DNA of 64,000 nucleotides from an uncultured virus (IMG/VR IMGVR_UViG_3300043781_000019) (taxonomy: Duplodnaviria; Heunggongvirae; Uroviricota; Caudoviricetes; Herelleviridae): IMG/VR virus record IMGVR_UViG_3300043781_000019. The stretch is one strand, 5' to 3'. Shown here piece by piece: positions 48,218 to 52,918 of this stretch. Numbering within the stretch: position 1 is the first letter of the stretch; every line of letters begins with the position of its first letter. The notes under the pieces were generated by a model that ran no database searches, was not told the origin of the DNA, and saw nothing but the letters and a program-made list of their open reading frames with translations. Position numbers and translations under genes: made by a program.

Positions 48218-48300
48218 TAAAAATTGGGGCAAACGTCCCTTTTTTTATTGACATAGATGATGGTGTATGCTAATATTAATTTGGCTTTGGGAGATACTAT

Positions 48301-49161
48301 ATGTTTAAGATAACTTCTAGATTTTACATTATATATGGGGATGATAAGCCAATATATGTTGGATACACTAATAGGACTGTCAAGCAGCGGTTTGTTGAGC
48401 ATTGTCAAGATAAGGATTTTAGTAGCTATGATAATGTTTATGTTAAAGAACTAGTGAATGAAAAGCTTAGCTTTAACTTTACATGGGATTATGAGCAAAC
48501 CTGTGTTAATGCCAACTGTGTTTCAGAAAGAGAATCCAACTTAGTTTCTAAATATGGCACTCAGGGTTCTGCCTATCAAAAAGCCATTGGTGGCGGGCAA
48601 ACGTGGGCAAGCGAAAAAGGATTTGTTAAGTCAAATATTAATAACCCAAAGTTTATGGGAATGGCTGGTAGTCAAGTAAAAAAGTATTTGGAAAGTAGGA
48701 AAAAGAAGTCTGTTTGGCTAAGTCACTTTGTAAGCCATATGCAACCAGTTGAGGCTGTTTGGTTAAGCAGCTTTGTAGGTAACATGAAACCGGTTGAGGC
48801 TATTTGGCTAAGTCACTTTGTAGGTAACATGAAACCGGTTGAGGCTATTTGGTTAAGTCACTTTGTAGGTAGTATGAGGCCAGCTGAGGCTGTTTGGCTA
48901 AGTAACTTTGTAGGTAACATGAATCCGGTTGAGGCTGTTTGGTTAAGAAACTTTGTAGGTAGTATGAGGCCAGCTGAGGCTGTTTGGTTAAGTCACTTTG
49001 TAAGTAGCATGAGACCAGTTGAGGAAGTTTGGTTAAATGACTTTGTGCATAACATGAGGCCAGTTGAGGCTGTTTGGTTAAGCAATTTTGTAGGTGGCAT
49101 GAGGTCGGTTGAGTCTGCTTGGTTAAGAAGCTTTGTAGGGAACATGAAGACGTTAGATTAA
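48301..49161 (+). CDS. GIY-YIG-like endonuclease with ten C-terminal 15-aa repeats
   Basis: YIIY...YVGYT...RFVEH...E N-terminal domain; own promoter at 48248. Confidence 0.7.
   Translation: MFKITSRFYIIYGDDKPIYVGYTNRTVKQRFVEHCQDKDFSSYDNVYVKELVNEKLSFNFTWDYEQTCVNANCVSERESNLVSKYGTQGSAYQKAIGGGQTWASEKGFVKSNINNPKFMGMAGSQVKKYLESRKKKSVWLSHFVSHMQPVEAVWLSSFVGNMKPVEAIWLSHFVGNMKPVEAIWLSHFVGSMRPAEAVWLSNFVGNMNPVEAVWLRNFVGSMRPAEAVWLSHFVSSMRPVEEVWLNDFVHNMRPVEAVWLSNFVGGMRSVESAWLRSFVGNMKTLD
48709..49158 (+). repeat. Ten in-frame 45-bp tandem repeats
   Basis: Consensus peptide AVWLxxFVxxMxPVE. Confidence 0.95.
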
Positions 49162-49190
49162 ATTTGTGTACTATATAGGGAGGAAATAAT

Positions 49191-49481
49191 ATGATTAAAA
49201 TTAGTTTTAATAAAAACAGCAAAGGAAAGTATGACTTTTCTGTAACTCAAAATGATAAATTGCTATACAAGAAAGAATATGCTGCCACAGAAAAGGATGA
49301 AACAGGGCACACACAAGCGCAAGTTTTCAAGGCTTATTGTAACTTTTTACAAGACCAAGTAAATGAAATTCTTGAGAAAGACCCTAATTTTCACTGGAAG
49401 TCCTTCAAAGACTTTAAGGCGTTTGCAGGCACCAAGAATCAAAATCTATTTTTTGAAAATGAGTTAAAATACTTGGATTAA
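49191..49481 (+). CDS. Hypothetical protein
   Basis: GGAGG RBS. Confidence 0.55.
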   Translation: MIKISFNKNSKGKYDFSVTQNDKLLYKKEYAATEKDETGHTQAQVFKAYCNFLQDQVNEILEKDPNFHWKSFKDFKAFAGTKNQNLFFENELKYLD

Positions 49482-49652
49482 TATGTTGACTTTTTAAAAT
49501 AAACGTGGTATAGTATTTATATAAGCTAGTTGGAAGGACAACCATATAAACCCTGCGATTCATGCTTGGCCAAAACATTTTTGCAGTAATTGATGGCTTG
49601 ATGCTTCCAGAAAGGGCGCCCGCTGGAAGCTACAAAATGGTGGCGCTATACT

Positions 49653-49725
49653 GCTTCCTTAGCTCATTAGGTAGAGCACTTGTTTTGTAAGCAAGAGGTG
49701 ACTGGTTCAAGCCCAGTAGGAAGCA
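49653..49725 (+). tRNA. tRNA-Thr(TGT)
   Basis: Cloverleaf, loop TTTGTAA, no encoded CCA. Confidence 0.9.
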
Positions 49726-49963
49726 TAGATTCAAATAAGCAATAGGCGATACCTTAAGCAAAATAACTAATATTTGGATTAAGCACTAAAAAGTGTTGAC
49801 ATTTAAAGCAGCACATGGTACACTTATTACTGTTGAAAGGCAAAAGGGATAAGGAAGATATAAAACGTGAGTTTTGTTAGTTAGAAAAATTAAAAAATAG
49901 GCCTTGACATTTTAGATAAGTTGTGTTAGTATTAAATTATGGTCATTAATAAGTGGCCATTTT

Positions 49964-50035: not shown

Positions 50036-50040
50036 TTTAT

Positions 50041-50133
50041 AGTCCTGTAGCACAGTGGTAGTGCACCCGGCCTATACCCGGCATATGTCAGTAGATTTTC
50101 TGAACGACATCGGTTCGATCCCGATCAGGACTA
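50041..50133 (+). tRNA. Atypical tRNA, TAT anticodon, long variable arm
   Basis: AGTCCTG/CAGGACT acceptor, good D and T arms, loop CCTATAC, ~25-nt variable arm. Confidence 0.7.
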
Positions 50134-50261
50134 TTAAAAAGTTATAACGTAGCAAAATTTGGCCTAGGGAAACGAGGCTTACTGATCTAAGTAAAAAATC
50201 TACGTTTAGAGTTTCCTTGTTAATATCTCTTTAAGGGATACTAGCAAGCTTCTCTATAAAT

Positions 50262-50666: not shown

Positions 50667-51149
50667 ATGAATCATAAGGTGGTATTTGAAGATAAAAATG
50701 TATTAGTATTTCACATTTATAGTAGCCTTGACAACCCTACTATGCTTAAGGTACAGAAAAGTTTGTACTTCCTTTGGGCTTATTACTCTGGAACCTATGG
50801 TAACTTAGTAGGTAAGGACGGACTAGATATTTCAAAAGAGGATTACCCAGAGTCCCTATTTAAGGGAAATTTTAAGGCACTTATGTATGGACCTGTTGAT
50901 ATAGATGTTCTTAAAAAGCAAAAAGAGAACTTCTACAGTAAAGATAAGTGGAAGGGGTATACCCCTAAAGGAAGTTCAGAAATAGAAGTTATGGGGTTCG
51001 TTAATGACCTATTGGGTCAAATAAACGCTGTAAATGACTTTGGACTAATTAATAGATGCCATGAAGATAATTGTTGGAAGCAAGCCTATGAAAATGGTAG
51101 GGAAAGCTATATGGATCTTGATGCTATAAGAAAAGAGTACCAGATTTAG
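50667..51149 (+). CDS. Panacea/SocA (DUF4065)-like antitoxin
   Basis: LKVQKSLYF...LF...F.A..YGPV...L....H....WKQA. Confidence 0.75.
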   Translation: MNHKVVFEDKNVLVFHIYSSLDNPTMLKVQKSLYFLWAYYSGTYGNLVGKDGLDISKEDYPESLFKGNFKALMYGPVDIDVLKKQKENFYSKDKWKGYTPKGSSEIEVMGFVNDLLGQINAVNDFGLINRCHEDNCWKQAYENGRESYMDLDAIRKEYQI

Positions 51150-51235: not shown

Positions 51236-51272
51236 TATTGGCAAATATGCTTATAATACTTTTGCCAATTGC

Positions 51273-52407: not shown

Positions 52408-52480
52408 TTGGTATTAGCTAAGTGGGAAAGCGTCCCATCACGAGGTGGGGAATGAGCAGGTTCGATTCCTGCATACCACA
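52408..52480 (+). ncRNA. tRNA-like RNA with 8-nt anticodon loop TCACGAGG
   Basis: Acceptor, D and canonical T arms. Confidence 0.7.
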
Positions 52481-52845: not shown

Positions 52846-52918
52846 TTGAGAGTAGCTAAATGGAAAAGCGCCCCGTCATTAGGCGGGTAATAAGTGGGTT
52901 CGATTCCCATCTCTCAAA
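52846..52918 (+). ncRNA. tRNA-like RNA with 8-nt anticodon loop TCATTAGG
   Basis: TTGAGAG/CTCTCAA acceptor, D and canonical T arms. Confidence 0.7.

Follow-up and report, generated by a model that had tools for sequence, protein, structure and literature searches.

GIY-YIG homing endonucleases, such as I-TevI, I-BmoI, and the Seg proteins of phage T4, are composed of an N-terminal GIY-YIG domain, a linker, and a separate C-terminal module. The genes of the I-TevI/Seg type are free-standing, have their own promoter, lie between conserved phage genes, and are present or absent among relatives; SegB is encoded in a tRNA cluster. The C-terminal tail of I-TevI consists of zinc-finger and helix-turn-helix DNA-binding modules. 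Homing endonucleases are known to swap their DNA-binding modules, and to our knowledge every such module described so far is a globular domain. Here we report a gene with the same overall layout at positions 48301-49161 of a 64,000-nucleotide stretch of DNA (hereafter, the window) from an uncultured virus of the Herelleviridae family (IMG/VR record IMGVR_UViG_3300043781_000019). Unlike in I-TevI, the C-terminal module of its product is not a zinc finger, NUMOD, or helix-turn-helix domain, but an array of 15-residue units of variable length. Together with a partner open reading frame (ORF) of about 100 residues, the gene constitutes a mobile two-gene cassette of a Lacticaseibacillus-type Herelleviridae phage. 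With moderate confidence, we propose that the product is a homing-type nuclease whose array recognizes the substrate, probably DNA, and that the partner is tied to the array framework. The features of the cassette and its borders are as follows, where AF2 stands for AlphaFold2.

48226-48246, plus strand: terminator-like hairpin and T-run that close the upstream operon, left edge of the variable slot (5-bp stem with 4 GC pairs; hairpin proper at 48226-48239)
48248-48276, plus strand: sigma-70-like cassette promoter, TTGACA-17 nt-TG-TAATAT (consensus match only, 10/12)
48301-49161, plus strand: gene of the GIY-YIG nuclease with the repeat array (286 aa, open under table 11)
48301-48600, plus strand: GIY-YIG catalytic domain, approximately residues 1-100 (Pfam, AF2, structure match)
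48601-48711, plus strand: conserved linker, residues 101-137, with two predicted helices (AF2)
48712-49161, plus strand: array of ten 45-bp (15-residue) units, the tenth ending in the stop codon
49191-49481, plus strand: partner ORF, 96 aa, PHROG 25372, function unknown
49486-49514, plus strand: second promoter-like site, marking the right border of the cassette before the tRNA island (consensus match only)
49652-49726: tRNA-Thr of the tRNA island

The original prediction for this gene, made from the sequence alone, described a GIY-YIG-like nuclease fused to exactly ten 45-bp units that end at the stop codon. The in-frame segment 48712-49161 is indeed 10 x 45 bp long, with 14 codons and the stop in unit ten, and Tandem Repeats Finder reports a period of 45 with 9.8 copies at 48710-49148 (80% matches, score 445, which is far beyond chance), as well as higher-order periods of 90 and 135 bp. 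The residues W, L, F, V, and M are invariant in 10 of 10 units, and the two dipeptides in which the prediction placed most of the variation (SH, SS, SH, SH, SN, RN, SH, ND, SN, RS and SH, GN, GN, GS, GN, GS, SS, HN, GG, GN) were given correctly, as was the mostly K/R character of the next variable position (8 of 10 units). The tRNA island is a true neighbor, its tRNA-Thr beginning at 49652. The claim of an own promoter stands in part: a sigma-70-like site does follow the terminator-like hairpin, but it is a consensus match, and 6 such promoter-like sites were found versus 5.0 expected in shuffled sequences. An identical copy of the nuclease gene is carried by the viral contig L008/L009 (L numbers designate the loci compared in this study).

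The assignment of the N-terminal domain as a GIY-YIG nuclease was borne out. Residues 8-61 match the Pfam family GIY-YIG (PF01541; E 3.6e-5, 24.4 bits versus a cut-off of 22.6), and AF2 models residues 1-140 well, with a predicted local distance difference test score (pLDDT) mostly of 85-96 (91-96 for residues 1-90, 70 for residues 91-100, and 85-90 for the linker helices 103-112 and 123-145). The best match among solved structures in VIA-align is the catalytic domain of I-TevI (1ln0_A; Z 7.1, root-mean-square deviation (rmsd) 2.5 A over 78 residues, 20% identity), with further GIY-YIG matches to PD-T4-3 (Z 5.3) and T4 EndoII (Z 5.0); GIY-YIG restriction enzymes are also among the fold matches. 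A Z of 7 is modest by VIA-align's own warning, but the match agrees with that in Pfam. In Foldseek, UvrC and I-TevI head the list with weak E values (0.02-0.4), and a sequence search with the N-terminal domain alone gave no match in the PDB (best E 0.51). Across 67 aligned sequences, Y19, V20, G21, R25, R30, E33, H34, and E78 are invariant, and Y9 and Y12 are conserved in at least 90%; by analogy, catalytic roles may be assigned to Y19, R25/R30, E33/H34, and E78. The window protein thus has the alpha/beta fold, the conserved strands and active-site-type residues, and a Pfam score above the cut-off of a GIY-YIG enzyme. Nucleases of this kind are already known; what appears to be undescribed is the repeat module with its variable face, and likewise the partner gene.

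A word-index search yielded 192 candidate relatives, among which 136 proteins matched at E<=1e-3; 120 of these were listed. In 118 of the 120 listed relatives, the array keeps a strict 15-residue register up to the C-terminus, with 2-12 complete units and a shortened last unit. We describe the unit as x1 W2 L3 v4 v5 F6 V7 v8 v9 M10 K11 P12 x13 E14 x15 (the original prediction numbered each position one higher). In the 90 proteins with at least 6 units, the within-protein entropy is highest at positions 4, 5, 8, and 9 (1.62, 1.64, 1.60, and 1.86 bits), followed by positions 1, 11, and 13 (1.34, 1.29, and 1.08 bits), and is at most 0.47 bits at positions 2, 3, 6, 7, and 10; the predicted focus of variation on two dipeptides per unit is therefore a property of the family. 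The alphabets at the variable positions are narrow, namely S/G/N/H/R/K at position 4, N/S/H/D at position 5, S/N/G at position 8, and N/H/D/S/T at position 9, with N/S/H/D/G/T accounting for 98% of units at position 5 and 94% at position 9; these positions hardly ever hold A, E, Q, or a hydrophobic residue. A total of 438 distinct variable-position tetrads were observed. Between subfamilies the framework changes almost completely, for example by a shift of the aromatic residue from position 2 to position 14, while the period, F6, and the four variable positions persist. Repeat number and content shift fast among relatives. Metagenome data (two runs, from two studies) contain a co-occurring second allele with whole-unit indels relative to the window, amounting to a net difference of one unit (45 bp).

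According to AF2 with 67 sequences, each unit is predicted to form an 11-residue helix followed by a 4-residue turn (pLDDT of about 45), and the variable residues fall in the middle of the helix and not in a loop. From this periodicity, W2, L3, F6, V7, and M10 would form one hydrophobic stripe of the helix, with positions 4, 5, 8, and 9 on the opposite face. The strict register together with purifying selection on the framework indicates a defined fold. Two known architectures with a related period were considered and rejected. In a pentadecad right-handed coiled coil, the helix is continuous and hydrophobic positions recur every 15 residues; here Pro occupies position 12 in 75% of units, and AF2 splits the chain into 11-residue helices. 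A beta-solenoid or pentapeptide repeat (15 = 3 x 5) is incompatible with the helical spacing of the hydrophobic residues (i, i+1, i+4, i+5, i+8) and with the non-hydrophobic character of every fifth residue. For the array, VIA-align listed long coiled coils, whose rmsd of 16-60 A makes these matches meaningless.

The repeat had not been recognized as a known family, and our searches agree. Pfam, PHROGs, NCBIfam, and PADLOC contain nothing meaningful for the array or the partner, apart from one PADLOC match of a 40-residue array segment to PDC-M27B (E 0.017, 11.8 bits). When the family profile was searched against PDB sequences, only chance matches came back (best E 0.0094, to a Ca-binding protein), so the profile check that had been proposed for the repeat found no known family and no solved structure. 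Zinc-finger, NUMOD, and helix-turn-helix families gave no Pfam, NCBIfam, or PDB sequence match in residues 100-286, and no TALE family appeared in the Pfam scan of the window protein at E<=10. In the ESM Atlas, there was no usable feature match, and the structural neighbors were low-complexity proteins. An exhaustive phmmer search with the array against 1.84 billion representatives gave 50 matches at E<=0.001; 11 motif carriers were among the matches listed, all with the same GIY-YIG domain, and the others were unrelated low-complexity repeats. Among the matches listed, the repeat occurs only with this nuclease. No account of this repeat turned up in the literature listings searched. A text search of the paper on phages 521B and SAC12B (PMC6563214), both of which encode members of the family, did not find 'GIY', 'endonuclease', or 'homing'.

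The arrays most similar in spirit are those of transcription activator-like effectors (TALE) and of the PUF and pentatricopeptide repeat (PPR) proteins. A TALE unit has 33-35 residues in two helices, with the variable dipeptide in the inter-helix loop. PUF and PPR units of 35-36 residues and 2-3 helices read single-stranded RNA through short polar specificity residues at i, i+1, and i+4 on one helix face. The window array resembles TALE in its tandem near-identical units, conserved framework, few hypervariable polar residues (N, H, S, D, G, K), and open-ended length, but its unit has 15 residues and one helix with four variable positions in the middle. Unlike in TALE, the repeats of the window family are old, as judged by their synonymous differences, the 438 tetrads have nearly uncoupled positions, no target correspondence was found, and the window repeat has no sequence or Pfam match. 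The spacing of its variable positions (i, i+1, i+4, i+5) gives a PUF/PPR-like face, but there is no sequence match to these families, and the fused domain is a DNA nuclease. Engineered fusions of I-TevI to TALE have been reported (PMC4065259).

The small partner gene was missed in the original prediction. Its homologs were found in 11 phage records at 13 places, directly 3' of a GIY-repeat gene wherever the annotation was inspected, and follow 24 of the 34 distinct GIY-repeat genes examined. Six of the ten genes without a partner had at most 170 nt of downstream DNA; the other four, in Lb338-1, at L025, the second gene at L040, and the array-less gene at L041, had at least 400 nt. We know of no such small ORF beside I-TevI or Seg genes. 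A confident fold was predicted for the partner (AF2 pLDDT 93.4, predicted TM score (pTM) 0.84), comprising a sheet of three strands and four helices, one long and three short. It had no clear relative: Foldseek against the PDB gave no row at E<=0.001, the best VIA-align match was to a bacterial PH-like protein (Z 5.3), BFVD returned only the orthologue from 521B, and PADLOC gave no match. Identity between partners correlates strongly with identity between framework consensuses (Spearman 0.83, 190 pairs) and weakly with identity at the variable positions (Spearman 0.34). Where two partners are at least 80% identical (13 pairs), the frameworks agree at 0.94 and the variable residues at 0.36; hence, the partner follows the framework and not the variable residues. 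At L040 (3385-5832), two GIY-repeat genes of 324 and 373 aa, with 12 and 15 complete units, stand in tandem, and the partner ORF follows the first gene only. No RNA run with the cassette was present among the public runs listed.

The borders of the cassette are visible in comparison with the Lacticaseibacillus myoviruses Lb338-1 and Lbab1 (Herelleviridae, Mooreparkvirus), whose sequences are 86-96% identical to the window flanks. Homology to Lbab1 stops at 48254 and restarts at 49531, and in place of window positions 48255-49530 this phage has a 552-aa ORF and a helix-turn-helix protein. Homology to Lb338-1 stops at 48278 and restarts at 49466, and there the slot holds the 552-aa ORF and the nuclease, without the partner. 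The 552-aa ORF (L020 3280-4935 in Lbab1, L021 3269-4927 in Lb338-1) has no Pfam family and is an alternative occupant of a variable hot spot. Lb338-1 also has an insertion of about 1.3 kb, including a transposase gene (L021 10051-11372), where window positions 51236 and 51276 are nearly contiguous. In the metagenome run X10, a contig (depth 22.8) joins position 48371 to 49466 with 20 other letters between them; this joint, which could be a form without most of the cassette, has 29 letters on one side and was not used.

Other members of the family occupy a variety of slots. The cassette of 521B, with one extra small ORF, stands where SAC12B has 210 bp, and a second cassette of 521B adjoins the terminase genes. 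Further copies lie at nrdD, either behind this gene or separating it from its activase (L026, L028), and in the vicinity of thymidine kinase (L023, L047) and of DNA methylases (L053); others precede an SbcC-like gene (L013, LP65) or follow one that is D5_N primase-like (L040, L054). Slots of the nrdD, thymidine kinase/tRNA, terminase, and sbcC types are the usual homes of free-standing homing endonuclease genes, and both the slots and the presence/absence pattern look like those of such genes. Presence or absence at fixed slots and the use of multiple slots would fit site-specific cleavage and homing. The nrdD gene upstream of the cassette at L026 (389-3661) itself holds an intein with a LAGLIDADG homing endonuclease, which places two selfish elements at one gene.

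In the terminase slot, the comparison of SAC12B with 521B falls into three parts: 97.2% identity across the upstream genes and codons 1-122 (366 nt) of the nuclease gene, no detectable similarity in what is left of the linker, in the array, or in the partner ORF, and 93.4% identity beyond. The homology break at codon 122 lies within the linker, and this pattern shows that array and partner move as one block, apart from the catalytic domain. Across the family, we compared the 60 closest of the 141 pairs with N-terminal domains at least 90% identical. The variable cells differ in 809 of 1336 comparisons (61%; approximately 73% for randomized units) and the framework cells in 1079 of 3674 (29%).

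In the explanation that we favor, the first gene of the cassette would encode a free-standing GIY-YIG endonuclease of the homing type, its catalytic domain like that of I-TevI and its usual DNA-binding tail replaced by the open-ended array with one short amphipathic helix per 15-residue unit. The hydrophobic stripe of W2, L3, F6, V7, and M10 would hold the array together, and the polar face of positions 4, 5, 8, and 9 would serve as the substrate-recognition surface, most likely for DNA. Changes in the number of units and in the variable residues would re-aim the nuclease. The partner, co-inherited with the array type, probably acts with the array framework as a cap, cofactor, or inhibitor. 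A more far-reaching form of this explanation, which we consider doubtful, treats the unit as a minimal open-ended scaffold for reading nucleic acids, distinct from TALE, PUF, and PPR, in which four polar residues set the recognition of each unit and which phages and a few bacteria use to re-aim a nuclease.

Several observations weigh against DNA recognition by the array, which is itself a prediction from the sequence. The AF2 model contains no trustworthy packing of the array, and the ESM Atlas model of the whole protein is poor (pTM 0.31). The exposure of the variable face is thus deduced from helical periodicity only, since the arrangement of the array has no confident prediction. Because S, G, and N are poor helix formers, the array may be only marginally folded alone. 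The phage-type arrays are nearly uncharged (net charge -3 to +8), and, with a partner gene constantly at hand, the ligand could be a protein instead of DNA. Arrays from the same kind of slot are not alike. Variable-cell identity in the three pairs among L023, L026, and L028 is 0.16-0.29, close to that of random unit pairs (approximately 0.27); it is 0.21 for L026 and L028, which share the nrdD slot, and 0.16 for L023 and L028. The two terminase-slot alleles of SAC12B and 521B hold different array types that differ even in framework. In the near-identical cassettes L004 and L032, gp179 of 521B has 11 complete units versus 5 in L032, at 98% framework nucleotide identity over the aligned units and 96% identity of the partner. 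Mutual information among the four variable positions is 0.03-0.16 bits above shuffles; they vary almost independently, and hence there is no small set of 'letters'. Finally, the ratio of nonsynonymous differences (pN) at variable positions to synonymous differences (pS) in the framework is 0.54-1.45 within arrays, where synonymous sites are near saturation, and 1.1 in the 21 usable orthologous units. The variable codons therefore evolve at about the neutral rate, with no proof of positive selection.

The framework behaves differently from these codons. Within arrays, its pS is 0.23-0.77 and its pN is 0.05-0.34, which indicates that the repeats are old and that their identity is kept by purifying selection and not by recent copying. 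There is no two-unit super-period, as unit identity is flat over lags 1-6. Of 940 variable codons, 80% have the form [A/G/C][A/G][T/C], and, among the frequent codons listed, Ser is always encoded by AGY, so that single steps within a small set of neighboring codons interconvert the variable residues. A diversity-generating retroelement, suggested by codons that resemble the product of adenine mutagenesis, was rejected: the cassette consists of two ORFs only, neither with a reverse-transcriptase match (a template repeat was not searched for), and A, P, L, F, and V, which free NNY mutagenesis is expected to produce, are rare.

The original prediction had gone further and compared the array with TALE, proposing a repeat code that is retargeted by shuffling. 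This is not upheld by the present data, given the unrelated arrays in the same slot, the change from 11 to 5 units between near-identical cassettes, the uncoupled positions, the lack of dN>dS, the mid-helix location of the variable residues, and the array fold without a confident prediction. The check proposed there, in which repeat number and dipeptide order are compared with the insertion sites, revealed no correspondence, identity being at the chance level. These data exclude a simple correspondence between array sequence and insertion site, and a strict TALE-like code, the boldest version of the idea, probably does not exist here. The code tests neither prove nor exclude DNA reading as such, which is plausible.

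The strongest competing explanation, although an improbable one in our judgment, is that the array serves as a scaffold for protein-protein contacts, either with the partner or with itself. In this case, the variable positions would be merely a tolerant polar surface, and the DNA would be targeted by the catalytic domain and linker or by the partner. The frequent presence of the partner, with just four of the ten misses having enough downstream DNA to be informative (at least 400 nt), its exchange together with the array as one block, its correlation with the framework consensus, and the near-neutral, almost uncoupled variable codons all accord with such a scaffold. So does the state of the partner-less array of Lb338-1, whose framework is among the most decayed (pN 0.32, second highest of 29 arrays). 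However, similarity of the partners is not accompanied by similarity of the variable residues (13 pairs), and a neutral surface would not so strictly exclude A, E, Q, and hydrophobic residues. Moreover, the arrays range from 2 to about 22 units beside a partner of constant size, and a basic subfamily of the nuclease has no such downstream partner.

This basic subfamily (L055-L063 and L017) has a divergent GIY-YIG domain (26-30% identity) and arrays of about 7 to 22 units (a length-based estimate), in which the framework is W/L/W/V and each unit has three K/R. The L055 array has a net charge of +48 (approximately +3 per unit) and an isoelectric point (pI) of 12.0, and a polyanionic ligand such as DNA is favored by this charge. 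No downstream partner was found at the loci of the subfamily; instead, an acidic 79-aa ORF (pI 4.8) lies upstream of the nuclease gene and overlaps its start by ATGA in the four loci aligned (L055 2811-3047, L060 3756-3992, L063 2213-2449, and L067 3765-4001; 85-90% identical to the L055 copy). This ORF may encode an inhibitor or antitoxin-like partner. The only genome match of the subfamily is a 349-kb contig of a Bacteroidota metagenome-assembled genome (L067), where the nuclease gene is located between a fusion of a response regulator with a DpnII-MboI-type restriction enzyme and a McrB-like AAA protein; these surroundings (L067 24-8027) look like a defense island. The context of the basic subfamily suggests a role in conflict.

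Accordingly, the whole family might be a conflict system, namely a restriction-like or exclusion nuclease with a variable recognition array, acting in phage-phage competition or bacterial defense, with the small protein as its inhibitor or regulator. We regard this as unlikely for the family, and as to the array itself it overlaps the explanation that we favor. The general organization is similar to nuclease-immunity and toxin-antitoxin systems in that a small ORF stands in tight linkage with a nuclease gene and diversifies along with one part of that gene, and the small ORF of the basic subfamily is acidic and translationally coupled, as in toxin-antitoxin pairs. The GIY-YIG restriction enzymes among the fold matches, the conserved acidic ORF, and the different array and partner alleles that close phages hold at one slot, as immunity-type pairs do, point in the same direction. 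Known pairs of these kinds gave no homologs, and the partner has a fold without a clear relative. PADLOC gives no match beyond the one at E 0.017, and hhalign detects no relationship between the two small proteins (probability 0.25%). The defense island is a single example, the subfamily being present in 1 of 401 genomes sampled from that phylum, which is the query's own genome, and the phage slots and presence/absence pattern are typical of homing endonuclease genes. In a last alternative, which is very improbable, the array would be a row of amphipathic helices tethering the nuclease to a membrane or to another surface that is not nucleic acid, and its polar face, though constrained in composition, would carry no information. 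In favor of it are the bulky hydrophobic residues opposite an S/G/N-rich face, the prediction of isolated helices that lack a confident tertiary arrangement, and the abundance of W and K/R in the basic subfamily. Against it, neither a signal peptide nor a membrane context was seen, a DNA-cutting enzyme of a homing-type cassette has no evident need of an anchor, some frameworks are acidic (net charge -3), and the strict register and the purifying selection on the framework point to a defined fold.

Several features downstream of the cassette are recorded here. ARAGORN reports a 95-nt tRNA-Ile(tat) at 50040-50134 and two tRNA-like genes with abnormal anticodon loops at 52408-52480 (4-base 'acga') and 52846-52918 (2-base 'tt'), which could be decayed or unusual phage tRNAs. 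A 160-aa ORF at 50667-51149 (PHROG 1281, function unknown) has a sub-threshold match to the SocA_Panacea antitoxin domain (E 0.0021, 19.4 bits versus 25.7). The segment 52138-52720 has matches at 89.6% identity in regions without annotation of three temperate siphophages of Lacticaseibacillus, namely R29.1, R3.1, and R9.1.

If the array aims the nuclease, it would be a third kind of natural repeat-based recognition scaffold, far more compact than those known at 15 residues per unit, and already joined to the monomeric cleavage domain used in engineered nucleases; its recognition rules would be accessible by systematic evolution of ligands by exponential enrichment (SELEX) on natural arrays. 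If the array instead binds the partner, the cassette would represent a new pair of nuclease and regulator in phage-phage or phage-host conflict. Either way, a family of more than 100 members is now defined, with its partner gene, module boundaries, and natural empty sites.

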